64,000 nt of DNA from Candidatus Methylomirabilota bacterium (lineage in GTDB: Bacteria > Methylomirabilota > Methylomirabilia > Methylomirabilales > CSP1-5). The position numbers were made by a program, and so were the translations under genes. The stretch is taken from positions 1,418 to 65,417 of the forward strand of contig VRUN01000002.1 of assembly GCA_019456075.1 (NCBI GenBank), in the 5' to 3' direction. Within the stretch, counting starts at the first letter, position 1. Each line of letters begins with the position of its first letter. Below the pieces are notes generated by a model, which saw only the letters and a list, made by a program, of their open reading frames with translations, ran no database searches and was not told the origin of the DNA. Shown here piece after piece: positions 1 to 58,655 of this stretch.

Positions 1-236
1 TTGATTCTCGTTGCGCGTTCGCCCTCACCCGGGACCTCACAATTAAGGAGGGGATCTTTGCGGGGGTGTCTTCGGGGGCTGTGCTGCATTGTGCCATCCG
101 GACGGCACATAAGATGGATGAGGGAAACGTTGTCTGCCTTCTGCCCGATGGCGGCGAGAAATATGTCAGTCTGGGGGTCTGGGCCAAGGAGCTGCCCGAT
201 CTGGGAGAAGATGTGTACAGCCACATCTGGTGGTAG
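1..236 (+). CDS. cysM: Cysteine synthase (CysK/CysM family), C-terminal fragment; the 5' end lies outside the window
   Basis: Frame 3 (codons from nt 3) reads ...LTIKEGIFAGVSSGAVLHCAIRTAHKMDEGNVVCLLPDGGEKYVSLG...W with TAG at 234-236. EGIFAG.S.GA and LPD.G.(K/R)Y are conserved C-terminal motifs of O-acetyl/O-phosphoserine sulfhydrylases. It is absent from the ORF track because it has no Met. It lies directly upstream of a Mec-like gene, as in the mycobacterial cysM-cysO-mec cluster. Confidence 0.8.
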   Translation, partial: DSRCAFALTRDLTIKEGIFAGVSSGAVLHCAIRTAHKMDEGNVVCLLPDGGEKYVSLGVWAKELPDLGEDVYSHIWW

Positions 237-271
237 CAAAGCGTCGGACGCGTTACGCATCGCGGATTGAG

Positions 272-670
272 ATGTTCAAGCTCGAAAAGCGATTCGCCGA
301 GGAAATCACTGATCACGCGCGAAGTGAGGTTCCCAATGAGTGCTGTGGTCTCGTGGCTGGGAAGGACGGGTCGGCATTGCAGCTTTATCGGTGTGACAGT
401 GCCGAAAAGAGCCCGTACCGATACTATGTCGACCCCAAGGACCAGATCCGGATTATGCGCGAGCTCGATCAGAAAGGATGGGACCTCATCGGGATTTACC
501 ACTCCCACACGCACACTGAGGCCTATCCGTCGAAGACGGACGTGGAACTCGCGTTCTATCCAGAGGCGCTTTACTTCATCGTCTCTCTCGAGAAGCCTGA
601 GGCACCGGTTATCCGGGCCTTTTGGATTATTGACGGGGAGATCACAGAGGAGGAGGTGATAGTCGCGTAA
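272..670 (+). CDS. mec: JAMM/MPN+ metalloprotease, Mec-like (sulfur-carrier C-terminal hydrolase)
   Basis: ORF 230..670; likely start is ATG 272 (MFKLEKRF...). It has the JAMM motif HSHTHTEAYPSKTD (HxHx7Sx2D) and an upstream ECCG Glu. The full length resembles mycobacterial Mec+. Confidence 0.85.
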   Translation: MFKLEKRFAEEITDHARSEVPNECCGLVAGKDGSALQLYRCDSAEKSPYRYYVDPKDQIRIMRELDQKGWDLIGIYHSHTHTEAYPSKTDVELAFYPEALYFIVSLEKPEAPVIRAFWIIDGEITEEEVIVA

Positions 671-774
671 GAGGGTTTTTTGTGTACCCAATTCCCGAGT
701 AATCCAATCGGGATTATCGCCTTAAATCGCAAGCTGGTGGCCCTCAGCACTTACTTAAAGAAAGGAGCCGTGAC

Positions 775-1617
775 ATGGCCGATTATGCACATCCTGAAAC
801 TCTTGTAGAGACGCAGTGGGTAGCGGACAACCTGAAGGATCCCAAGATTCGCTTGGTCGAGGTCGACGTCGACACGGCCGCCTACGGCGAAGGACATATC
901 CCCGGTGCAATAGGCTGGAACTGGAAGACTGACCTGGAAGAGCAGCTGGAACGCGACATCCTCCGCCGAGACACCTTTGAGAAGCTGCTCAGCCGCTCGG
1001 GAATTGCCAATGACACGACCGTGATCTTGTACGGTGACAACAATAACTGGTTTGCCACGTATGCGTTCTGGCATGTGAAATTGTACGGGCATGCGGATGC
1101 CCGGGTCATGAACGGGGGCCGGGCGAAGTGGATTACCGAGGGGCGACCGATGACAAAAGAGACCCCGTCCCATCCGGCGACGAAGTACCAGGCGAAGGAT
1201 CCGGACAAAAGCATCCGGGTGTTGCGGAGTCAGGTCGTCGATTCGGTGGGGAAGGCGGGCCTCGGGTTGGTGGATGTGCGCTCGCCGAAAGAATTTAGCG
1301 GCGAGATCTTGGCGCCAGAAAACCTCCCGCAGGAGGGGGCGCAGCGTGGCGGACACATCCCGGGGGCGGCCAACATCCCCTGGAGCCAGGCGGTCCGGGA
1401 AGATGGCACCTTCAAGAGCGTTGAAGAATTGAAACAACTCTATCAAGGCAAGGGGATTACGCCGGACAAGGAAATTATCGCGTATTGCCGGATCGGCGAG
1501 CGCTCTTCGCATAGCTGGTATGTACTGAAATATCTTTTGGGCTACCCCAAGGTGCTGAATTACGACGGGTCGTGGACCGAGTACGGCAGCTTGGTGAATG
1601 TGCCGATTGAGAAGTAA
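775..1617 (+). CDS. Thiosulfate sulfurtransferase, tandem rhodanese domains (CysA/SseC-like)
   Basis: 280 aa with two rhodanese domains and active-site loop AYCRIGERSSH. It is near-collinear with actinobacterial CysA-type thiosulfate sulfurtransferases as I remember them. SD AAAGGAG lies upstream of ATG 775. Confidence 0.85.
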   Translation: MADYAHPETLVETQWVADNLKDPKIRLVEVDVDTAAYGEGHIPGAIGWNWKTDLEEQLERDILRRDTFEKLLSRSGIANDTTVILYGDNNNWFATYAFWHVKLYGHADARVMNGGRAKWITEGRPMTKETPSHPATKYQAKDPDKSIRVLRSQVVDSVGKAGLGLVDVRSPKEFSGEILAPENLPQEGAQRGGHIPGAANIPWSQAVREDGTFKSVEELKQLYQGKGITPDKEIIAYCRIGERSSHSWYVLKYLLGYPKVLNYDGSWTEYGSLVNVPIEK

Positions 1618-1628
1618 GGAGATCCGAC

Positions 1629-2297
1629 GTGACAGGGACCCAAGTGGATGAACCCTTCTTTCGGATTGAGCCGGCGGAAGCAAAGGGCTTGATCGAAAAG
1701 GGCATACCGGTGGTGGACGTCCGGGAACCCCAGGAGTATGCCCAGGTCCGGATCCCGAATTCCACCCTCGTCCCCCTGGGAACCCTCCTCAGGTCGCCGC
1801 GGGAGTTTATGAAAGAGGGGGCAGTTCTTTTCATCTGCTCGGAAGGTATCAGGAGCGCTGTGGCCTGTGAAGCTGCGGCGGCAATTGGGCTCGACGAGGT
1901 CTATAACTTGGAGGGTGGAACACAGCGGTGGGAGACAGAGGGTTACCCGGTGGAGTTGGGGCAAGGCAGCGAGCCGGTCATCGCTGAAGCACCGGCTGAA
2001 CCCCAGGTACCCCACCTCGATTTCCTCCAGCCGGGCGAGCACCTCATTCGGATCCATCGATTCCGGTATCTCAGAGCCGTAGGATGCACATTGGGTGGTC
2101 TGATCCTCAGCGTGGAGGAGAGCCTGGGCGAGGTCAGTGACCCATCGAGACGATGCACGGCGCGACCGGATCACCCGGAACTGGTCCCGAGGCCCGAGTT
2201 CACGGTCTTCGCGGAGAATGTGGAGGCGGCCGTGCGGGGTCTCATCGAGAAACTAAGGCCCCGTCGGCCGCAGGAGATCTTCCTGCCCACGGAGTGA
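1629..2297 (+). CDS. Single-domain rhodanese fused to an uncharacterised 93-aa C-terminal module
   Basis: GTG start follows SD AAGGAG. Residues 1-~112 form a rhodanese domain (FICSEGIRS active-site loop), followed by an A/P/E-rich linker. Nt 2016-2294 encode a module paralogous to ORF 5412..5624 (see findings). Confidence 0.75.
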   Translation: MTGTQVDEPFFRIEPAEAKGLIEKGIPVVDVREPQEYAQVRIPNSTLVPLGTLLRSPREFMKEGAVLFICSEGIRSAVACEAAAAIGLDEVYNLEGGTQRWETEGYPVELGQGSEPVIAEAPAEPQVPHLDFLQPGEHLIRIHRFRYLRAVGCTLGGLILSVEESLGEVSDPSRRCTARPDHPELVPRPEFTVFAENVEAAVRGLIEKLRPRRPQEIFLPTE

Positions 2298-2391
2298 TGA
2301 ATTGCAGAGACATAGTGGGGGTGACCTCGGAATTCTGATCGAGTGAGGAGACGTATACGGGCCGTCGGTTTCCACCAGAGAGGAGTCTAAG

Positions 2392-3429
2392 ATGTCTACC
2401 AGGCTGACGAAGGTATTTCTGGTTCTGTTCGTAGTCATGGGCCTGCTGCAAGTCCCGGTGAGCTGGGCGCTTGATAAGATCCGCATTGGGTACATGCCCA
2501 TCCTTCCCTCGGCCCACGAGTTCATTGCGGCCGAGAAAGGGTGGTACCGGGAACTCGGAGTCCCGGTGGAAGAAATCCGATTCAGCTCGGGTCCGCCGAT
2601 CGTCCAGGCCTTTGCGGCGGGACAGGTAGACGTCGCCTATTTTGGCATCGGGCCCGCCCTGGTCTCGGTCGCGAAGGGGATTAAAGCCAAAGTGGTGGCT
2701 TCGGGCGTGACGGAACAGCTGGCGGTGATTGCCGTGAATTCATTTGCAGATCAGTACCAAAAAGAACCGAACCGAAAGGCCTTTCTGCAGTTCGCGAAAG
2801 CGAAAGGGCGTCCACTGAAGATCGCCACTTTTCCTCCCGGTTCCACACCCAACGTGATGCTTCGGTACTGGCTGGACAAGCTCCACGTCGATCCCGTGAA
2901 AGATGTGGAAATCCTTTCCATGGGGGCCTCCGGGGTCCGCTTGGCGGTCCTTTCACAAAAAGTGGATGCCACGATGATCTTGGAACCGATCATCACCATC
3001 ATCCGGCATTCGCCGATTCCCTACAGAATTGTTGTGTACGGCAAGCAGATTCTCCCCGGACAGCCCGGATCGATTCTGTTCGTCCGACAGAGCATCATCG
3101 ACGAGCGACCGGACATTGTGGAGAAGCTGGTCCACATGCACCTCAAGGCAACGAAGATTTTGGTCGAGAAGCGGGACGAAGCGGCGGGAATTATCTCTCG
3201 AAAGATCGGGCCTGAAGCGTTGCCGGTCAAGGTCGCCCGGGAGTCGCTGGATTCGAAGGCGCTGCACTGGGTTGCCAACCCCCATGCAATCGTTGATGGG
3301 ACGATGACCTACAACCGGTTTCAGGTGAAGCTGGGGACCTTCAAGAAGGGGGTGGACCCGAAGGATCTCTTTGACTTCCGGTTCTACGATCGCGTGATCA
3401 AAGCCCATCCTGAATACAAGGGGTACTGA
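2392..3429 (+). CDS. ABC transporter periplasmic substrate-binding protein, NMT1/SsuA/TauA (NitT/TauT) family
   Basis: N-terminal signal peptide (VFLVLFVVMGLLQVPVSWA). The sequence is NMT1/THI5-like, and the SD is GAGGAG. The adjacent permease and ATPase belong to the same transporter family. Confidence 0.8.
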   Translation: MSTRLTKVFLVLFVVMGLLQVPVSWALDKIRIGYMPILPSAHEFIAAEKGWYRELGVPVEEIRFSSGPPIVQAFAAGQVDVAYFGIGPALVSVAKGIKAKVVASGVTEQLAVIAVNSFADQYQKEPNRKAFLQFAKAKGRPLKIATFPPGSTPNVMLRYWLDKLHVDPVKDVEILSMGASGVRLAVLSQKVDATMILEPIITIIRHSPIPYRIVVYGKQILPGQPGSILFVRQSIIDERPDIVEKLVHMHLKATKILVEKRDEAAGIISRKIGPEALPVKVARESLDSKALHWVANPHAIVDGTMTYNRFQVKLGTFKKGVDPKDLFDFRFYDRVIKAHPEYKGY

Positions 3430-3441
3430 GGAGACCACGAG

Positions 3442-4215
3442 GTGAAAGGCAACCCTGTCTTGGGCATATCCCGGTTGGGACGGACGGTCGTCCAGTGCAC
3501 GTCCGTGGCGGGTTTTCTCGGCCTGTGGGAAGGGTTGGTTTGGCTCGGCTTGTTCCCTCCGTACCTGCTGCCTGCTCCCACAGCAGTCGCCACCACGTTT
3601 GTCGATCAGATCGGGAATGGGAATATCCCCCGACTGCTGGGGTACAGTCTGCGGCATTATGCCCTGGGGCTCATTTGGGGGGTGAGCCTTGGGGTCCTTC
3701 TGGGCCTCTGTATGGCCTGGTCTCGGCAGCTCGAATTGGTCCTCGACCCGATCATCGCGCTGCTGCGCCCCATTCCCCCCCTGGCATGGATTCCATTTGC
3801 GATTATTTGGTTTGGAATCACGACCCAGGCGGCGGCCTTCCTGATCTCGCTGGGGGCGTTCTATATCACGCTCTACAGCACGTATGGGGGAGTCAAAGGG
3901 ATCGATTGGCGTCTGGTGGATGTAGCGCGGACGCTCGGCGACCAATCGAATTGGGGGATCATCCGTCGTATCGTGATCCCTGCAGCCCTGCCCGCGATTC
4001 TCACCGGCATTCGGACCAGTCTCGGGCAGGGTTGGATGACTGTTGTCGCAGCGGAAATGTTTGGGATTCAAGGCATCGGACTCAAAATGCTTGAGGCGGC
4101 AGGCCTGCTGTCGATGGACGTGGTTATGGCCTATATGGCGGTGATCGGCCTCGTCTACTTCGGAATTGATCATACCTTCCGGACAGTCGAGGACCGGCTT
4201 TTGCGTTGGCGTTAG
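3442..4215 (+). CDS. ABC transporter permease (NitT/TauT family)
   Basis: Multi-pass hydrophobic protein. It has the EAA-type loop ARTLGDQSNWGIIRRIVIPAALPAILTG typical of binding-protein-dependent permeases. Confidence 0.85.
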   Translation: MKGNPVLGISRLGRTVVQCTSVAGFLGLWEGLVWLGLFPPYLLPAPTAVATTFVDQIGNGNIPRLLGYSLRHYALGLIWGVSLGVLLGLCMAWSRQLELVLDPIIALLRPIPPLAWIPFAIIWFGITTQAAAFLISLGAFYITLYSTYGGVKGIDWRLVDVARTLGDQSNWGIIRRIVIPAALPAILTGIRTSLGQGWMTVVAAEMFGIQGIGLKMLEAAGLLSMDVVMAYMAVIGLVYFGIDHTFRTVEDRLLRWR

Positions 4216-4973
4216 CGATGCGATCAACCAAGCTCGAAGTTCGAGAACTCTCCAAGGTGTTTCGCACGGTCGAGGGAAGGGAGATCCTTGCCTTGAAGGA
4301 CATCAACCTCGAGGTTTTGGACGGCGAGTTGCTCTGCATCCTTGGCTCTTCGGGCTGCGGGAAGAGCACCCTCCTACGGATCGTGGCTGGCCTCGAGCAG
4401 CCCTCGGCGGGAGATGTTCTCATCAATGGGCGGCCCCTCACGGGGCCCGGCCCGGACCGTGGGATGGTTTTTCAGGAACACCTCCTCTTCCCGTGGCGAA
4501 CGGTTCGACAGAACGTCGAGTATGGACTTGAGGTGAAGGGTGGACCGAAGACGGCGCGGGCGCAGGAGTGCCTGAGCATGGTGGGGCTCGAAAATTCCAG
4601 CGAGCAGTATCCAAAGGAATTGAGCGGGGGGATGAAGCAACGGGTGGGCATTGCCAGGGCCCTGGCGAATGATCCAGCCATCCTCCTAATGGATGAGCCC
4701 TTCGCCTCGGTAGACGCCCAGACCCGGTCCGACCTGCAAGCCATGTTGTTGACGATTTGGTGGGGTACGCGGAAAACCATCCTGTTCGTGACGCACAGCG
4801 TAGAGGAAGCTGTCTATCTGGCCGACCGTGTGATTTTAATGGGAAGTGGGTCCGGGCACATCATCGATACCGTTTCGGTCGATCTGCCGCGTCCGCGGTA
4901 TCGGGTGAGCCCGGAGTTCAATGACGTGCGGCGCGATATTCTCAAGCGCCTCGGTTTTCTTACCGGGGAATAA
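4206..4973 (+). CDS. ABC transporter ATP-binding protein (sulfonate/nitrate/taurine type)
   Basis: Walker A GSSGCGKST, signature LSGGMKQR and Walker B LLMDEPF. It overlaps the permease stop, which suggests translational coupling. Confidence 0.9.
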   Translation: MALAMRSTKLEVRELSKVFRTVEGREILALKDINLEVLDGELLCILGSSGCGKSTLLRIVAGLEQPSAGDVLINGRPLTGPGPDRGMVFQEHLLFPWRTVRQNVEYGLEVKGGPKTARAQECLSMVGLENSSEQYPKELSGGMKQRVGIARALANDPAILLMDEPFASVDAQTRSDLQAMLLTIWWGTRKTILFVTHSVEEAVYLADRVILMGSGSGHIIDTVSVDLPRPRYRVSPEFNDVRRDILKRLGFLTGE

Positions 4974-5247
4974 CACCGCCCGCGAGGGCTGGGATAATGA
5001 CGATCTCATCTCCTTCGCTGAGCGGCGCGCCAAGCACTTGGGGGTCCGTAACTTCTTCGCGGTTGATGTAGATGAGGACGAATCGGTTCAATTCTCCCTG
5101 CGGGTCAAGGAGGCGTTCGTTGAAGCCAGGATATTGCTGGTTGAGGGCAGCGAGTGCCTCCCCAACAGTGGTGGCCTCGACCTGGACAGCTTCCTGCCCC
5201 GAGGTGAGACCACGAAGGATTGAGGGAATCTTAATAGTCTGGCCCAT
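4960..5247 (-). CDS. cysO: ThiS/MoaD-family sulfur-carrier protein, CysO-like, with a 4-residue tail after the Gly-Gly
   Basis: 95 aa: MGQTIKIPSILRGLTSGQ...NRFVLIYINREEV...IIPALAGG-VIPR. It is collinear with mycobacterial CysO (IPTILR..., FVNIYVNDEDV, ILPAVAGG). SD AAGGAG lies upstream. Its 3' end overlaps the convergent ABC ATPase gene by 14 nt. Confidence 0.8.
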   Translation of the reverse strand: MGQTIKIPSILRGLTSGQEAVQVEATTVGEALAALNQQYPGFNERLLDPQGELNRFVLIYINREEVTDPQVLGAPLSEGDEIVIIPALAGGVIPR

Positions 5248-5273
5248 GGTTTTTCACGTCTCCTTACCGTGCG

Positions 5274-5302
5274 AGCATACCCGGGCAGTATTGGCCGGTC
5301 AA
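5274..5302 (-). promoter_or_regulatory. Candidate sigma70-type promoter for the CysO-like gene
   Basis: On the minus strand: TTGACC (5302-5297), a 17-nt spacer, then TATGCT (5279-5274). AAGGAG and ATG 5247 follow. This is motif inspection only. Confidence 0.35.
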
Positions 5303-5411
5303 GCCCTGATCCTCTCCACACCGAGGAGAGCAAAGCCCGCAGCGTAGTGGGACGAAAGTCCGACATGAGGTCATCCAGGAGGGTTGTTGTCCATGAGTAA
5401 GGCAGGTGTGA

Positions 5412-5624
5412 GTGGGACAAAACCTCGATTTCCTCCAGCCGGGCAAGCACCTTGTTCAAGTCCATCGGTTCCGGTATGTGCGGGCCGTGACGTGCGCCTT
5501 GGGGACCATTGAACTGGTGGTGGAAGAGACCTTCTATGGAGAGAGTGTTAAGGGCGCCTTGCAAGCCTTGATCGAGAAGCTCCGGGGGCGGCGCCCACAG
5601 GAGACCTTCCTGCCCACGGCATAA
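5412..5624 (+). CDS. Small (70 aa) uncharacterised protein, paralog of the C-terminal module of ORF 1629..2297
   Basis: GTG start sits just after an in-frame TGA, with AAGG..AGG upstream. LDFLQPGKHLVQVHRFRYVRAVTCALG...LIEKLRGRRPQETFLPTA aligns with nt 2016-2294. The synonymous-substitution pattern supports + strand coding. It stops 21 nt before tauE. Confidence 0.65.
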   Translation: MGQNLDFLQPGKHLVQVHRFRYVRAVTCALGTIELVVEETFYGESVKGALQALIEKLRGRRPQETFLPTA

Positions 5625-5645
5625 GAGAGTACGCATGGAGAATTC

Positions 5646-6413
5646 ATGACGGATTCGCTGCTCGTAATTGCGTGCATCGGAATGATCTCGGGCTGGATCA
5701 CGGGTGCGTCTGCCGTAGCGTGGGGGGCGTTGAGCGTTCCGCTGCTGATTCTCGTTGGGGTTGAGCCGTTAACGGCGATCAGCTCGAGTCTCGGGGCTTC
5801 CGTTTTTCTGAGCCTGTTCGGCGGCTGGACCCATTGGCATTATGACCATTCGCGGCTAGCCCCCCTCCTGCCACTTTTGGTTGGGGGAGTAGGAGGGGCT
5901 TTCCTGGGGAGTTTCCTGAGTCCCGCACTTCCAGCGCAGACGCTTCGCGCTCTGATTGGCGCGACGACCCTGATCATAGGATTACTGATGCTTTTGCGGC
6001 GGAATGGGATCAGTGCTGAGAGTGGTGCCAAGGGGCTCATGAAATTGCGCGAGAAGCGGGCGACGATCTTTGGGATCGGGGTCATAGCCGGCTTTTTCGC
6101 CGGAGCGATCGGTGCAGGGTGGGGGACGATCGGCGTCGCTTTGCTAGTGTGGACAGGCATTCCGGCCCACACCGTCGTTGGGTCTTCGCTTTTGGCCCGG
6201 TCTCTGGTGGCCTTGGCCGCAAGCGGCTCGTATACCCTGCAGACGGGGCTTCCCCCTGTGGACGTTTTCTTACCGTTACTCGTCGCCGGGGGAGCGGGCG
6301 TGTATCTCGGGGTCCGGTCCTCGAATGGATTCTCACCCCTGACGATGCGGAAATTCATTGGGGGGGTGGTTGCGATCGTGGGGGTTGTGGCCGTAGTCGG
6401 CATTCCATGGTGA
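5646..6413 (+). CDS. tauE: TauE/SafE-family sulfite/sulfonate exporter-type membrane protein
   Basis: 255 aa and highly hydrophobic (about 7-8 TM segments). Gly-rich helices are typical of the TauE/SafE (DUF81) family. SD GGAGAA lies upstream. Confidence 0.75.
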   Translation: MTDSLLVIACIGMISGWITGASAVAWGALSVPLLILVGVEPLTAISSSLGASVFLSLFGGWTHWHYDHSRLAPLLPLLVGGVGGAFLGSFLSPALPAQTLRALIGATTLIIGLLMLLRRNGISAESGAKGLMKLREKRATIFGIGVIAGFFAGAIGAGWGTIGVALLVWTGIPAHTVVGSSLLARSLVALAASGSYTLQTGLPPVDVFLPLLVAGGAGVYLGVRSSNGFSPLTMRKFIGGVVAIVGVVAVVGIPW

Positions 6414-6584
6414 GGTCGGAAGTTCCTCGCTCTGAGCAGTCGGTGGGAATGGGGAAACACCGACAGGGCGGATAAAGGATGCAATGGGGGGAGGAAAAGG
6501 CTTTCGAGCTCAAGACGGGTGTCGGTGAGTGCGCCGTGTAAGGGGACTACCGTCGGGACGGGATCCGAAGAAGAGGTGCAACAG

Positions 6585-7517
6585 ATGGGATTTCAGGGTT
6601 TAACGGTGGCGGTCACGGGGAGCCGGAGAGCCTCGGAGCAGGCCGAGCTGATCTCGAAGCTCGGTGGGGTCCCATACGTGGCCCCGACCGTCGGCATTGA
6701 AGTCCAAGACGAGGCGGACTTTCAAACGGAAGGGTTGGTCCACAAGATTGTTGGAAGAGAATTTGATTATGCCGTCTTCATGACAGGTCCCGGTGTCTAT
6801 CGCTTGATATCGACAGCTCAGAAGCTGGGATTAGAGGGCGAACTGGTCGAGGTGTTGAATCGTATCTTTGTGGTTGCACGGAGTCACAAGCCGCAGAAGG
6901 TTCTGGAGAGATATGAGGTTCGGGTGGACTTGGTGCCATCTGACAATACCTCGGAGGGAATCGCTGCAGAGATGGCCAACCTTGACCTCCAGGGCAAGGG
7001 CGTCGCCATTCTGTGGTATGGCGAGTCGCAGACGGTTCTCCGGGAAACCTTAGAGCGAGGCGGGGCAAAAGTCTTCGAGGCGATGGCCTACATGTACTCA
7101 CTGGAGCTCAAGGAAAGGGGGGCCGAGGTCCTTGCGGCGGTCGGCTTCAAATCCATACCTCCCGAGAACCGAAAGATCCTGCAGCTCATCGATGATCTCA
7201 TAAAAAGGAAGATTCACATCATTACCTTTACGAGTCCTCCGTCGGCCAGAAACCTCTTCCGGTTTGCGGAAGCGCACGGCCTGGACGGGGACCTGCGTCG
7301 ATGCCTGAATGAAGACATTCTCGTCGTCGCTGTAGGGCCGCCGACGCGGCGGGCTATTGAGGAAAGCGGCGTCGCCGCCGATGTGATGCCTGACGTCTAC
7401 AAGTTGGGACCCATGATGCGAGCCGCGATTGATTATCTGATTCGCGATCTCTCCCGGACTCCGAAAAGGGCTCTTGGGAAGGTGGAGATCGGGACCGAAG
7501 GAGACGAGCGTGGATGA
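6585..7517 (+). CDS. hemD: Uroporphyrinogen-III synthase (HemD)-like protein
   Basis: ORF 6519..7517; likely start is ATG 6585 after GAGGTG. It has HEM4-like repeats (LTVAVTGSRR..., IHIITFTSPPSARNLF, LVVAVGPPTRRAIEE). Context is the siroheme and sulfite reductase genes. Confidence 0.6.
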   Translation: MGFQGLTVAVTGSRRASEQAELISKLGGVPYVAPTVGIEVQDEADFQTEGLVHKIVGREFDYAVFMTGPGVYRLISTAQKLGLEGELVEVLNRIFVVARSHKPQKVLERYEVRVDLVPSDNTSEGIAAEMANLDLQGKGVAILWYGESQTVLRETLERGGAKVFEAMAYMYSLELKERGAEVLAAVGFKSIPPENRKILQLIDDLIKRKIHIITFTSPPSARNLFRFAEAHGLDGDLRRCLNEDILVVAVGPPTRRAIEESGVAADVMPDVYKLGPMMRAAIDYLIRDLSRTPKRALGKVEIGTEGDERG

Positions 7518-7637
7518 GGCACCATTCCAAGTATAAGTCAAGGTCTACTCGCACGTGGTGTGGGGGGTCTTCGAGCTATCGGGGGTGTGCTGGTCACCAG
7601 AGACTGCCCAAAGTAAGAAATTCACGCTGGTGGAGAT

Positions 7638-9482
7638 ATGGAAGAGATCAATCCAAATCTGAGAACACCCTTGGAGGAACTTTCCAAGCTAGAGCGCGCC
7701 AAGCTTGACTCCAACGGAATCCGCGGAAATCTCTTTCAGGATTTCCGGGATACTTCTGTGGCCGATGTTGCGTGGGAGTCCGAACAGCTCGCCAAATCCC
7801 ACGGCATTTATCTTGAATGGAATCGGGCCAAGACAGGCAAAGAAAAAGAATGGATGTACATGATCAGGATCAGTATTCCTGGTGGAGGTCCCATCACACG
7901 AGAACAATGGATGGTGTTTGACGAGTTATCGGAGCGGTTCACCGTCAACCCTGAGGGCAGTCCGTCGTTGCGGATTACCACCAGGCAAAACATCCAGTTC
8001 CATTGGGTGAAGAAAGCGCATGTTCTTGAGGTTGTGCGGGGGGTCGCTGAATCCGGATTTTACAGTGTGAATGGATGTGGAGACAACGTCAGAAATGTCA
8101 TGGGATGCCCCGTTTCTCGCTTCTCGAAAGTTTATGACGCCAATGCCTGGGCGCAAAAAGCTGGGAAATATTTCAGGCTTCCCACCGCAGCCTTCATTGA
8201 AATCTTTGCGATAGACCCGAACTATTTACGGGATCCAGAGGAGCGATTCCAGTACGGTCCCAATTTGTTAAACCGAAAATTTAAGATCGGCTTTTCGGCG
8301 ACACACTTTGATGAGGAAAAAGGGACGTATGTTCCGGATAATTGTGTGGAACTCCGCACAAATGACATCGGCGTCGCGCCGATTGTGGAAGATGGCAATG
8401 TCAGGCGATTCCAGGTGTTTATTGGGGGGAGCCAAGGAGAAAGGAACGGGAAGCCCACGTTTTCTGCGATGGGAGAACCCTTTTGCATCGTGACAGAGAG
8501 CGAATTATTAAAAGTCCTGGATGGAATCGTGCAGGTGCATCAGGAGTGGGGTGACCGTCAAAACCGTCACTGGGCTCGAATGAAATATGTCCTAAGAAAG
8601 CAAGGAATGGAGTGGTTCCGAGTACAAGTTCGTCAGGTCAGCGGCTGCGATTTTGAAATGCCCGACCCGGATCATGATTACGGGAACAGGCATCTGCATC
8701 ACGGTTGGATGGTCCAGCCGTCCGATGGACGGCTGTCCTACGGGGCCTTTATCGAGAACGGACGGATCGTCGACGGCCCGAATGGAAGACTCAAAGCCAT
8801 GGTCCGGTACGTCATGCATAAATATCCCGTTCAGCTGATGACGACTCCTAATCAGGATATCTTGTTCACGAATATCCCACCAGGCGTCGAGTCGGAATTT
8901 GAGCCCTACTTGAGAAGTTTTGGGTACGGCATGCGACACGGACGGCGCTACTCGCGGCTTCGCCTGCTGTCCGGTGCCTGCGTCGGAAGAGATACCTGCC
9001 AGCTTACGTATACGGATGCTGAAAAATTTGAACCCTCTTTGATTGACGAATTAGAGCAGAAATGGGGGGAGATGGCCGAGTCCATCGGCGTCACCGGGTG
9101 TGAACGGCAATGTTTTCGCCCTGCAACAAAGACCATTGGCTGGGTTGGAATGGGTCTAGACAGGTACCAGCTCAAATTGGGCGGGACCGAGGACGGGAGA
9201 CATCAAGGGGAGCCACTGATTGATCGAGAGACGGGTGAGATGTACCTGCGGAGTGTCCCGCGAGAAGAGGTGGGCACGGTCAGCGATGTGCTCTTTGAAT
9301 TCTATAGTGCAAATAGATTACCGGGCGAAGGGATGGGATATTTTCATCAACGAATCGGCAGGGAGCTGATCATTAAGCATCTGAAAGAGAACCCGAGAAC
9401 AGCCCAACTGATGAAAACCACCTTTAAGAGCCCGCGGAGCCGAAAGGGGGATGTGCATGGAGACCAAGAGTCAACTGGATGA
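7638..9482 (+). CDS. sir: Assimilatory sulfite reductase hemoprotein (siroheme/[4Fe-4S], ferredoxin-type Sir/NirA family)
   Basis: 614 aa. N-terminus has LERAKLDSNGIRGNLFQDF, followed by NIR_SIR repeats. Cluster Cys motifs are SGACVGRDTC and TGCERQCFRP. It sits next to cysH, sat and cobA. Confidence 0.8.
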   Translation: MEEINPNLRTPLEELSKLERAKLDSNGIRGNLFQDFRDTSVADVAWESEQLAKSHGIYLEWNRAKTGKEKEWMYMIRISIPGGGPITREQWMVFDELSERFTVNPEGSPSLRITTRQNIQFHWVKKAHVLEVVRGVAESGFYSVNGCGDNVRNVMGCPVSRFSKVYDANAWAQKAGKYFRLPTAAFIEIFAIDPNYLRDPEERFQYGPNLLNRKFKIGFSATHFDEEKGTYVPDNCVELRTNDIGVAPIVEDGNVRRFQVFIGGSQGERNGKPTFSAMGEPFCIVTESELLKVLDGIVQVHQEWGDRQNRHWARMKYVLRKQGMEWFRVQVRQVSGCDFEMPDPDHDYGNRHLHHGWMVQPSDGRLSYGAFIENGRIVDGPNGRLKAMVRYVMHKYPVQLMTTPNQDILFTNIPPGVESEFEPYLRSFGYGMRHGRRYSRLRLLSGACVGRDTCQLTYTDAEKFEPSLIDELEQKWGEMAESIGVTGCERQCFRPATKTIGWVGMGLDRYQLKLGGTEDGRHQGEPLIDRETGEMYLRSVPREEVGTVSDVLFEFYSANRLPGEGMGYFHQRIGRELIIKHLKENPRTAQLMKTTFKSPRSRKGDVHGDQESTG

Positions 9483-10209
9483 GGTGGAGGTCAAAGAACT
9501 GGCGATCCGCTTTGAAGGGGAAGATGCAGAGACGGTAATCCGATGGGTCCTCGAGCGCTTTCATCCCCGTATCGCCTTGGCGACCAGCCTCCAGGCGGAA
9601 GAGATGGTGATTTTGGATATCGCGTGGAAGACGAATCCCGGTGTGCGGGTGTTTACGCTGGATACCGGCCGGCTCCACGAAGAGACGTACATGATCATGG
9701 AGCAGATCCGAGAGAAGTACGGTATTAGCGTCGAAAGCTATTTTCCCCAGCGGCAGGCTGTGGAGGCTCTGGAACGGGAGAGGGGATTTTACTCCTTCCG
9801 GAGGAGTGTGGAGGAGCGAAAGTATTGCTGTGGCATTCGTAAGGTGGAGCCTCTTGGTCGCGCTGTGAATGGTCTCGATGCGTGGATTACCGGGCTGCGG
9901 CGGGAACAGGCGGTGACGCGAGGTATGGTTGGTAAGGTAGAAGCTGACGAGAGCCATGGAGGAATCATCAAGGTGAATCCTTTGGCTGACTGGTCGGGGG
10001 AACAGGTCTGGGACTACATCCGCGCCCACGACATTCCGTACAATGCTCTCCACGACGTGGGGTTTCCCAGCATCGGGTGTGCTCCTTGTACACGGGCCAT
10101 TAAGCCGGGGGAGGATATCCGGGCCGGACGGTGGTGGTGGGAGATGCCAGAAACCAAGGAATGTGGGCTTCACGTTACACCGGTTGAGGGGCACCGACCT
10201 ACTTCGTGA
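9451..10209 (+). CDS. cysH: Adenylylsulfate (APS) reductase, thioredoxin-dependent, Fe-S type
   Basis: PAPS_reduct fold. It carries the two extra Cys pairs diagnostic of APS- rather than PAPS-specific enzymes (YCCGIRKVEPL and SIGCAPCT) plus the C-terminal ECGLH. No APS kinase gene is present in the window. Confidence 0.85.
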   Translation: MCMETKSQLDEVEVKELAIRFEGEDAETVIRWVLERFHPRIALATSLQAEEMVILDIAWKTNPGVRVFTLDTGRLHEETYMIMEQIREKYGISVESYFPQRQAVEALERERGFYSFRRSVEERKYCCGIRKVEPLGRAVNGLDAWITGLRREQAVTRGMVGKVEADESHGGIIKVNPLADWSGEQVWDYIRAHDIPYNALHDVGFPSIGCAPCTRAIKPGEDIRAGRWWWEMPETKECGLHVTPVEGHRPTS

Positions 10210-14720: not shown

Positions 14721-14996
14721 ATGAGCGTCCTCGTCCGGATTCCGACACCGCTGCGGAGCCTGACTCAGGGGCAAGCCGAGGTTCAGGGAGAAGGGAGCTC
14801 TGTTCAGGAACTCATTGAGAATCTCGAGGTGCATTACAAGGGCTTGAAAGAACGGCTCTACGAGGGAAAAGACATCCGCCGCTTCATTAATGTCTATGTG
14901 AATGATGAGGACATCCGGTTCCTTCAAGGAACGGCGACCCCGCTGAAGGCGGGAGATCAAGTCTCCATCGTCCCTGCCATTGCCGGAGGGAGGTAG
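14721..14996 (+). CDS. ThiS/MoaD-family sulfur-carrier protein, CysO-like, with Gly-Gly followed by one Arg
   Basis: ORF 14709..14996; likely start is ATG 14721 after [23 protein letters not shown]...[13 protein letters not shown]...IVPAIAGG-R is very close to the CysO pattern. Confidence 0.8.
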
Positions 14997-56978: not shown

Positions 56979-58655
56979 ATGAACATGATGGGGACGGGGG
57001 ACGACAATCGAGAAAGAAAGGAGGATCGCAACTTGCCAGGAGAGCTGGAGCAGCGAGAATCGACTGTCAGCATGCAGGACATTTACGATCAAACCTTCAA
57101 GGACATCCTGGAAGGGGAGATTGTGAAGGGGAAGGTCCTCAATGTTGGAACCGATTCCATTGTAATTGACATTGGATACAAGTCGGAAGGAACCATCCCC
57201 ATCAAGGAGTTTCTCACCCCTCAAGGACAGCTGGAGATCCAAGTGGGGGATGACGTAGAGGTGTACCTCGAATCCAAGGAGGACAACGAAGGGATTGTCG
57301 TCCTGAGCCGAGAAAAGGCAGAGAAAATCAAGGTCTGGGATGAGATCAGCAAGGTTTATGAGAAGGGGGGGGTGGTCCAGGCGACCATCATTTCGAAAAC
57401 AAAGGGGGGATTGATTGTGGACATTGGGGTCCGGGCATTCCTCCCCGGGTCCCAGGTAGACCTGCGTCCTGTACGAGATCTTGACAGGGTGATCGGCAAG
57501 ACGTTTCCCATGAAGATTATCAAACTGAACCAACGGCGCGGTAACATTGTCGTTTCTCGGAGAGAGCTGCTGGAGGAGGAACGGAAGGGTCTGAAGGAAA
57601 AGACCCTTGCCACGTTAGAGGAGGGGAAGGTCCTGAAGGGGAAAATTAAGAACATCACCGAATACGGGGCCTTCATTGATCTCGGCGGCCTCGATGGCCT
57701 GCTGCACATCACCGATATGTCCTGGGGACGGATTGGACATCCGTCGGAGCTTTTTGCGGTCGGAGACGAGATCGAGGTAGCCGTCCTCAAGTTCGACCGT
57801 CAAACGGAACGCGTTTCCCTCGGCTACAAACAGCGTCTGTCGGATCCTTGGAAAGAGGTAACCCAAAAGTTCGCCCCGGGGACCAAAGTGAACGGTAAGG
57901 TGGTGTCGATTACTGACTACGGGGCTTTTGTCGAGCTCGAACCGGGGGCGGAAGGTCTCGTCCATATCTCGGAAATGTCCTGGACCCAGCGGGTCAAGCA
58001 TCCCTCGAAGGTGGTGGCCGTGGGAGACGTGGTGGAGGTTGTGGTACTTGAAATCGACCAATCGGCTCGGCGGATCTCCCTTGGGATGAAGCAAGTGGAG
58101 CCTAATCCGTGGGATGCGTTGGAGCAACGATACCCCGTGGGAACTCACGTCGAGGGAACGGTCCGAAACCTTGTGGACTTCGGTGCCTTTGTAGAGCTGG
58201 AAGAGGGAATTGACGGGCTTATCCATATTTCTGACATGTCCTGGACCAAGCGGGTGAAGCACCCTTCAGAGACCTTGAAAAAGGGGGATCACATCGGGGC
58301 CCTTGTGCTCCACGTGGATAGGGCAGCCCGCCGTATCTCACTGGGATTGAAGCAGACGCAACCCGATCCGTGGAAAAGCATTGTCCCTGAAAGATACCGA
58401 GTTGGAATGGATGTCATGGGGAAGGTGGTCCGAATCACCGACTTCGGAGCTTTTGTAGAGCTTCCCGATGGCATTGAGGGGTTGCTCCATGTCTCGGAAC
58501 TGTCCGAGGGCCGGGTCAATAAGCCAGAGGACGTGGTGAAACCGGGCGAGGAACTGACCCTCAAAATCATTAAACTCGACACCGATGATCGTAAGCTCGG
58601 CCTCAGTCTCCGGGCCTACCAGGAAGCCGGGCGGGAAAAGGGGGAAGAGGAGTAA
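56979..58655 (+). CDS. rpsA: 30S ribosomal protein S1
   Basis: 558 aa with six S1 repeats (GxVxG.V..I..YGAFV.L pattern). AGGAGG lies 11 nt upstream. Confidence 0.95.
   Translation: MNMMGTGDDNRERKEDRNLPGELEQRESTVSMQDIYDQTFKDILEGEIVKGKVLNVGTDSIVIDIGYKSEGTIPIKEFLTPQGQLEIQVGDDVEVYLESKEDNEGIVVLSREKAEKIKVWDEISKVYEKGGVVQATIISKTKGGLIVDIGVRAFLPGSQVDLRPVRDLDRVIGKTFPMKIIKLNQRRGNIVVSRRELLEEERKGLKEKTLATLEEGKVLKGKIKNITEYGAFIDLGGLDGLLHITDMSWGRIGHPSELFAVGDEIEVAVLKFDRQTERVSLGYKQRLSDPWKEVTQKFAPGTKVNGKVVSITDYGAFVELEPGAEGLVHISEMSWTQRVKHPSKVVAVGDVVEVVVLEIDQSARRISLGMKQVEPNPWDALEQRYPVGTHVEGTVRNLVDFGAFVELEEGIDGLIHISDMSWTKRVKHPSETLKKGDHIGALVLHVDRAARRISLGLKQTQPDPWKSIVPERYRVGMDVMGKVVRITDFGAFVELPDGIEGLLHVSELSEGRVNKPEDVVKPGEELTLKIIKLDTDDRKLGLSLRAYQEAGREKGEEE

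Follow-up and report, generated by a model that had tools for sequence, protein, structure and literature searches.

A rhodanese-linked domain of Methylomirabilota outside the known families, and the eroded remnant of a second gene copy

Small partner proteins steer the sulfur that is bound to rhodaneses, and few such partners are known. In the relays of TusA, DsrE, DsrC/TusE and Rhd-TusA-DsrE2, small cysteine-bearing proteins take over persulfide sulfur from rhodaneses, and actinobacterial CysA, a two-domain rhodanese, is paired with the adjacent SseC (DUF1416), a protein of about 100 amino acids whose function is unknown. MoeZ/MoeZR, MoeBR, MOCS3 and Uba4 combine an E1-like adenylyltransferase with a rhodanese domain, and in mycobacteria MoeZR serves the CysO/CysM/Mec system (PMC3227635). 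Further, SseA of Mycobacterium tuberculosis is activated by its small neighbour Rv3284 (SufE-like, 'SseE'), which binds SseA and may accept its persulfide (PMC12375888). The gene considered here lies at positions 1629-2297 (+ strand) of a 64,000-nucleotide stretch, hereafter the window, of contig VRUN01000002.1 from a Candidatus Methylomirabilota (NC10) bacterium, and its product joins a rhodanese domain to a module that we call X. A partial second copy of the gene (copy B, as against copy A for the fusion gene itself) lies at 5412-5624.

The fusion protein and its domain X

It is evident that the open reading frame (ORF) at 1629-2297 encodes a conserved protein of the NC10/Methylomirabilota, 222 amino acids long, in which a single rhodanese domain of the MoeB/MoeZ type is joined through a linker to X. 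More than 50 full-length homologs of 220-224 amino acids, with identities down to 51%, were found, and where a source annotation is given, in a few cases, it reads only 'rhodanese-like domain-containing protein' or 'rhodanese-related sulfurtransferase'; a literature search pairing Methylomirabilis with rhodanese found no paper. The complete single rhodanese that an earlier note on this DNA had recognised at the N-terminus is borne out, since residues 15-103 (1671-1937) match Pfam Rhodanese (PF00581; expectation value E=7e-14, 52.5 bits against a cut-off of 22.2) and the catalytic Cys70 lies in a CSEGIRS loop that is nearly invariant among orthologs, with Cys70 itself invariant in 44 homologs and opening the six-residue active-site loop. 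The best NCBIfam stretches for this domain are the rhodanese regions of MoeB (PRK08762) and MoeZ, models that align by these parts only (15-117 of 387 and 290-382 of 392) and far under their cut-offs. The same model alignments place no ThiF/MoeB adenylation domain in the 222-residue polypeptide, so that it is not itself a MoeZ or MoeB protein.

The AlphaFold2 model of the full-length protein, built from a 44-sequence alignment, shows two folded domains at a mean predicted local distance difference test (pLDDT) score of 82. Between them, the A/P/E-rich linker (residues 113-127, 1965-2009) is variable, unconserved in the alignment and modelled at pLDDT below 50. A Foldseek search with this model returned rhodaneses only, among them YgaP, TVG0868615 and other single-domain ones (E 4e-8 to 1e-4), and target-normalised template modelling scores of up to 0.89 place the N-terminal part in the rhodanese alpha/beta fold. 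Against 11 orthologous genes, the ratio of nonsynonymous to synonymous substitution rates (dN/dS) is 0.10-0.23 for the rhodanese domain and 0.16-0.37 for X; the latter, together with a substitution pattern specific to the + frame, upholds the view of the earlier note that the stretch is protein-coding in that frame, and X is under purifying selection in its reading frame.

X itself (residues 128-222, 2010-2294) is an autonomous domain of about 95 residues and constitutes a new family absent from the family libraries searched. Its conservation is on a par with that of the rhodanese part, and it is modelled at a pLDDT of about 90 within the full-length protein. In the predicted fold, residues 139-151 and 154-166 pair as a long beta-hairpin that turns at C153; two short strands (176-181, 193-195) follow, and helices (198-209, 214-217) lie at the C-terminal end. 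An alignment of 16 sequences that includes the stand-alone forms described below has a constant length, 47-55% identity between phyla and 14 invariant columns, namely E137, L139, R141, H143, R146, C153, V162, E163, E164, R175, C176, H182, A201 and F218, all of which hold in the distant stand-alone forms.

Profile and structure searches agree with the earlier description of X as a discrete module outside known families. Pfam and NCBIfam scans of fused and stand-alone X up to E=10, the Pfam part covering 19 fused and three stand-alone sequences, gave no consistent family; a sequence-profile search of the PDB gave chance matches only (E>0.2), and the best Foldseek match of a domain-only model in the PDB had an E of 1.2. 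Nor was any membrane segment found in X. The exclusion of TusA and ThiS/MoaD made on sequence features alone also stands: no X sequence matched TusA (PF01206) at E<=10, and CPxP is missing from the alignment; the beta-grasp family of ThiS, MoaD and CysO (PF02597) was likewise unmatched, while the neighbouring ORF 4960-5247 was matched in the same scan as a positive control, and X ends in ...FLPTE without a Gly-Gly. Thus, unlike the proteins of the TusA, DsrE and DsrC relays, X has neither CPxP, nor a Pfam match to any of these three families, nor a C-terminal cysteine arm. At one NC10 locus (L007), genes of DsrE, DsrH and TusA lie upstream at a distance of a few kb. It differs from Rv3284 in lacking a match to the SufE-like Pfam family, in its predicted fold of a long beta-hairpin and a C-terminal helix, and in having two invariant cysteines and two invariant histidines, and from SseC in lacking a match to DUF1416 or any other Pfam family at E<=10; the taxa differ in both cases. 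Overall, X is a new domain family within a known kind of system, that of the partner proteins of rhodaneses.

The constant partner of X in other genomes

Directly upstream of the fusion gene, at 775-1617 (+ strand), lies the gene of a two-domain rhodanese of 280 amino acids (Rhod280), a sulfurtransferase of the CysA/SseA type with two stretches of Pfam Rhodanese matches; its best NCBIfam match, 3-mercaptopyruvate sulfurtransferase, falls under the cut-off. X is rare. A HMMER profile of X scored against all 1.84 billion representative proteins gave only 14 matches, among which three (P0071, P0072, P0074) are complete stand-alone X proteins with a methionine at the domain boundary. A degenerate hand-made X motif, scanned over one genome per species, gave 21 stretches, which comprise 20 true loci and one false positive (L030). 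The fused form was found in other NC10 genomes, and the motif scan placed stand-alone X in four genomes of Gemmatimonadales, one of Candidatus Sulfotelmatobacter (Acidobacteriota) and five of Methylomirabilota. The stand-alone ORFs are of 92-99 amino acids and start at the domain boundary (L009-L011, L015, L016, L019, L020, L025, L027, L028, L031, L034).

At every locus examined, an ortholog of Rhod280, with 62-93% identity to the protein at 775-1617, directly adjoins X either upstream or downstream: in 13/13 stand-alone and 11/11 fused loci (24/24), with the adjacency seen once again on a short contig (L035). X is therefore genetically inseparable from the two-domain rhodanese, whether fused or free. 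Moreover, the neighbourhoods of stand-alone X contain sulfite reductase, cysteine synthase, ThiS, a membrane protein of PF03601 and a metallo-beta-lactamase-fold protein, while a TauE homolog was found in none of the 13 stand-alone loci (spans of up to 8 kb). These results bear on three proposals of the earlier note. The assignment of the module to sulfur metabolism holds, X being found in settings of sulfate/thiosulfate assimilation and of CysO/CysM/Mec, whereas its association with transporters gives way to Rhod280 as the conserved partner, and the free-standing form proposed there is real in other genomes but not in the ORF at 5412-5624 of the window. The arrangement resembles that of SseA and Rv3284 in that a two-domain rhodanese is encoded next to a small cysteine-bearing protein, and that of actinobacterial CysA, which is close to the product of 775-1617 in sequence type.

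Two side observations concern these loci. In most of the stand-alone ones, Rhod280 and X are accompanied by a conserved ORF of 69-74 amino acids (for example L010 876-1100 and L011 3195-3404, whose products start MKPEEIRQHVGERVTVQL... and MVKLEQLEQLIGMRVTLRL...; also L015, L020, L027, L028, L031 and L034), which is His-rich (...HxH...) toward the C-terminus, matches in Pfam just the RimP C-terminal SH3 domain, and weakly so (E 0.04-0.16), and is absent from the window and from the fused-type NC10 loci. In L031, a 248-residue metallo-beta-lactamase-fold protein (4164-4910), which may resemble persulfide dioxygenase, is encoded between stand-alone X and this small SH3-like ORF. Further, L035 carries at 246-416, by the Rhod280 gene, an independent, shortened X of 56 amino acids (P0077), known from this single short contig, from which the middle 36 residues are gone; the deletion sits between two VEEA-coding repeats, and P0077 could represent a further decayed copy or have arisen by slippage.

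The second copy and the inserted cassette

Copy B is a 70-codon open frame on the + strand with a GTG start, with X homology at 5422-5532 and 5533-5621 around a deletion point at 5532/5533. The repeat between the two gene copies reported in the earlier note is present, in blocks of 79% identity (2014-2095 against 5422-5503) and 72% identity (2214-2292 against 5541-5619) that a MAFFT alignment separates by one 81-nt gap, the single in-frame indel of 27 codons. The details given there were reproduced as well: the run of 23 identical nucleotides at the start of the homology (ACCTCGATTTCCTCCAGCCGGGC) is an exact match, 24/36 N-terminal and 15/18 C-terminal residues are identical, the two copies share an aligned stop codon, and differences over the first 36 codons fall mostly on third, then first, then second positions (15, 11 and 6). 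A single count changes, in that seven rather than six of the 10 differing codons among the last 18 are synonymous. By the Nei-Gojobori method, the two copies differ with a dN/dS of 0.22 in the + frame and of 0.41-1.9 in the other five. An antisense frame that reads ...VLARLEEIEV on the minus strand of both copies was tried as a gene and rejected, with a stop in copy A and a dN/dS of 0.9. The coding signature seen on comparing A with B stems from the divergence of two alleles that once functioned, not from selection on the short ORF; a low ratio inherited from functional alleles is no evidence of such selection.

The state of copy B in the window and in sister strains leads to a conclusion other than the paralogous module of the earlier note: what ORF 5412-5624 preserves is the eroded 3' end of a partial duplicate of the fusion gene, truncated on its 5' side and no longer functional, and the ORF is a pseudogene. 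The earlier note had itself named frameshifts or stops at orthologous loci as counting against its reading, and copy B shows disruption of this kind. In the window, copy B lacks the rhodanese domain and linker of the fusion gene, its GTG and first three codons derive from unrelated junction or flanking DNA, and it has lost 145 nt by the junction and a further 81 nt, the latter loss removing, within 27 codons, the invariant R175, C176 and H182. Its 70-residue product is identical to an NCBI protein of a candidate division NC10 bacterium, and a search with it found only four other proteins, all odd chimeras, encoded on contigs with the same order of ThiS (-), copy B and TauE and with flanking sequence that matches the window at about 99% identity. 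On one of these (L001), the fusion gene is preserved from codon 81 (...EAAAAIGLDE...) through to its 3' end, a stretch of 429 nt that is collinear with copy A but interrupted by a premature TAA; on another (L002), a rhodanese fragment jumps to ...HPVQVVRPE...; on a third (L003), everything up to ...VQVVRPE... is lost; and the copy that encodes protein P0002 has yet another, different deletion. The deletions at this locus are nested, four different ones in all, beside the single premature stop. The deletions of L002 and L003 take out the whole N-terminal hairpin, and the ORFs called at copy B in other strains open in unrelated frames. The last ~100 nt before tauE are kept in all strain variants. 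Point differences among the four strains (0 synonymous, 6 nonsynonymous, 1 nonsense) fit decay without being significant alone, and the state seen in L001 is corroborated by the independent samples P0002 and L002. Ten bases into tauE (about 1868-2000), the L001 contig switches to a repeat of its own ThiS region (914-1216), probably through chimeric assembly of the metagenome or through a rearrangement at the locus.

How copy B arose can be approached from the gene order of other NC10 genomes. At 11 other loci (L004-L007 and seven more), the order is CysO, CysM, Mec (JAB), Rhod280, fusion gene and TauE, with sulfite reductase, HEM4, 3'-phosphoadenosine 5'-phosphosulfate reductase and ATP sulfurylase close by; in 10/11, TauE lies directly 3' of the fusion gene, and at none of the 11 was a transporter cassette or a second copy of X found. 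Homology of the window to these loci runs through copy A and an ancestral intergenic remnant (2298-2338), whose end is the left insertion edge in a blastn comparison with L029, and resumes from copy B and TauE, so that the segment of about 3 kb from ~2339 to 5421 is an insertion. It holds an SsuA-family ATP-binding cassette (ABC) transporter at 2392-4973, whose binding protein (2392-3429), permease (3442-4215) and ATPase (4206-4973), all on the + strand, were assigned by Pfam and NCBIfam; a minus-strand gene (4960-5247) of a ThiS/MoaD/CysO-like sulfur carrier (PF02597, E=2e-13), with NCBIfam matches to SAMP1 and MoaD under their cut-offs; and a 174-nt spacer. The TauE/SafE-family permease gene at 5646-6413 (+ strand; PF01925, E=1e-35) was the next gene downstream of the fusion gene in the ancestral order. 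Both copies do stand upstream of transporter genes, as the earlier note had pointed out (SsuA-family ABC and TauE), but the two instances are not an independent association, because the ancestral order is fusion gene followed by tauE and the cassette is a lineage-specific insertion. A promoter and terminator scan and a composition profile gave nothing distinctive for the cassette or copy B.

Moreover, copy B is a mosaic. The first 176 nt of the L001 duplicate are identical to copy A at 174/176 positions, up to window position 2044, while over the 253 nt that follow, identity is only 66% with copy A and 90% with the intact ortholog of L006, a genome whose flanking genes share only 72-78% identity with the window. 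The break in identity to copy A is sharp at 2044/2045, and copy A itself resembles L029 throughout (83%, 81% and 85% in three segments). The 3' part of copy B, at 5453-5621 in the window and 1591-1843 in L001, is about 90% identical to L006 8417-8669. A 3' part so close to L006 amid flanks so much less alike points to recombination of a ~250-nt piece with DNA of another NC10 lineage. Copy B is thus not a simple recent tandem duplication; simple Campbell-type integration was considered and set aside, as it explains the duplication from codon 81 onwards but not, by itself, the contrast of 99% and 66% identity. In the history that we propose, the ABC-transporter/ThiS cassette of about 3 kb would have been inserted behind the fusion gene, ahead of tauE, with a second, 5'-truncated copy of the fusion gene as its trace; deletions differing by strain would later have eroded that copy. 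Copy B is like other pseudogene remnants beside inserted DNA in its truncated 5' end, its position flanking a cassette and its strain-specific deletions and nonsense mutation, and unlike them in being a mosaic. It also serves as a caution: a short ORF may be unbroken and show a good signature of coding, and yet be what is left of a dead duplicate.

A possible role in sulfur transfer and competing readings

The rhodanese domain of the fusion protein is closest to those of MoeB and MoeZ, and its gene sits in a CysO/CysM/Mec cluster of the kind that MoeZR serves in mycobacteria. The two differ in where the rhodanese is placed: the E1 encoded in the cysteine cluster of NC10 unites ThiS with ThiF (L004 3966-5057; L006 4180-5271), and its alignment to MoeZ covers positions 6-275 of 392 and hence includes no rhodanese domain, and in NC10 the rhodanese is on a separate polypeptide, fused to X. 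We infer that the rhodanese domain of the fusion protein may be the unit that thiocarboxylates CysO. Rhod280 would form a persulfide, for example from thiosulfate, and the sulfite freed would be available to the adjacent sulfite reductase. X would dock on Rhod280 and accept or channel the sulfane sulfur, with Cys153 at the predicted hairpin tip as the likeliest acceptor. In NC10, X would then hand this sulfur on to the rhodanese fused to it; that domain would stand in for the one missing from the ThiS-ThiF E1 and thiocarboxylate the E1-activated CysO, and thiocarboxylated CysO would serve CysM/Mec-dependent cysteine synthesis.

Given the adjacency at 24/24 loci and the invariant cysteines, X is likely to be a sulfur acceptor or adaptor for Rhod280 that feeds CysO-dependent cysteine synthesis. 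Its rarity, its strict linkage to one type of sulfurtransferase in three phyla and its invariant cysteines and histidines single out X as a concrete candidate for the acceptor or adaptor that is missing between rhodaneses that handle thiosulfate or persulfide and the cysteine synthesis that depends on protein thiocarboxylates. The more specific idea that X defines a new class of persulfide carrier or adaptor, physically coupling a thiosulfate sulfurtransferase of the CysA/SseA type to a MoeZ-type rhodanese in the E1/CysO route, is put forward tentatively; if true, it would define the physiological sulfur-donor branch of the CysO cysteine pathway. Since the mycobacterial literature stated the sulfur source for CysO thiocarboxylation to be unknown (PMC3227635), this putative route is worth testing. 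As a whole, the explanation that combines a genuine fusion gene, X as an acceptor or adaptor linked to Rhod280, and copy B as a remnant appears to us a reasonably probable one.

Several points weigh against this explanation. Transfer of sulfur by X is suggested by adjacency and the invariant cysteines, with no structural homology beside them; the model of X by itself is mediocre (pLDDT 73); the set of His/Cys/Cys/His could be a structural metal site; and the E1 gene lies outside the window, its missing rhodanese domain being taken from orthologous loci. As for copy B, the 0/6/1 count of substitutions is too small for significance alone, the flanking genes of these near-identical strains are likewise rich in nonsynonymous differences, and in the window copy the 70-codon frame is unbroken and has a plausible site for ribosome binding, so that a peptide may conceivably be expressed from it.

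The main rival to a role in sulfur relay would make X a non-catalytic regulatory or activator subunit of Rhod280, in which H143, C153, C176 and H182 bind a structural metal such as zinc. We know of no metal-binding motif with the spacing H-x9-C-x22-C-x5-H, and, judged by the predicted secondary structure, Cys153 at a hairpin tip would be far from the histidine pair. In favour of this rival, adjacency to Rhod280 is strict, and the two cysteines and two histidines are invariant in all clades. Rv3284, moreover, activates SseA mainly by binding its non-catalytic domain (PMC12375888). Fusion of X to a catalytic rhodanese domain favours a place in the sulfur path instead, and the activator is the less probable reading. 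An accessory role for X in transport, coupled to the TauE permease and not to the sulfurtransferase, would account for the position of TauE directly behind the fusion gene in 10/11 fused-type loci; with 0/13 stand-alone loci carrying a TauE homolog, Rhod280 beside X in all of them, and no membrane segment in X, such a role is very unlikely.

The two remaining rivals concern copy B. Were both copies functional paralogous modules, ORF 5412-5624 would be a free-standing sulfur-relay or transport-accessory protein, and the intact frame with AAGGCAGG upstream of its GTG, the dN/dS of 0.22 between the copies and the similarly shortened P0077 beside a Rhod280 gene on an unrelated contig would fit. 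Set against this are the stop (L001) and the loss of the N-terminal hairpin (L002, L003) in sister strains with ~99% identical flanks, as well as the missing R175, C176 and H182 and a start codon taken from junction DNA; the low dN/dS built up between two functional full-length alleles, and the 3' part of copy B shares 90% identity with the intact ortholog of L006. We consider functional paralogs very unlikely. A reading of the repeat as non-coding, a regulatory element of DNA or RNA upstream of sulfur transporters, is barely credible: both copies precede transporter genes and the last ~100 nt before tauE are retained in every strain variant, but the coding signature is limited to the + frame, and the protein domain keeps 47-55% identity across phyla, a constant length and an aligned stop. 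An Rfam scan of window positions 1-10000 at E<=1 found nothing, and the RNA element was dropped on this account. The remnant of a dead duplicate thus stays the preferred reading of copy B.

Finally, a few minor features of the window may be recorded. It has two ThiS/CysO-like genes, at 4960-5247 (-) and 14721-14990 (+). The protein of the cassette gene ends in ...AGGVIPR and would need trimming of the JAMM/Mec type to expose its Gly-Gly, and the gene itself shares 14 nt with the 3' end of the convergent gene for the ABC ATPase. Long antisense ORFs of 204-424 amino acids lie over + strand genes at 751-1683 (-), 2953-4227 (-) and 1560-2174 (-); codon-aligned open antisense frames often occur in GC-rich genomes, and we take these to be such frames and not genes. 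Further downstream, 57915-58006 and 58176-58267 form a 92-nt direct repeat of 76% identity at a spacing of 261 nt, which looks like tandem units within one gene.

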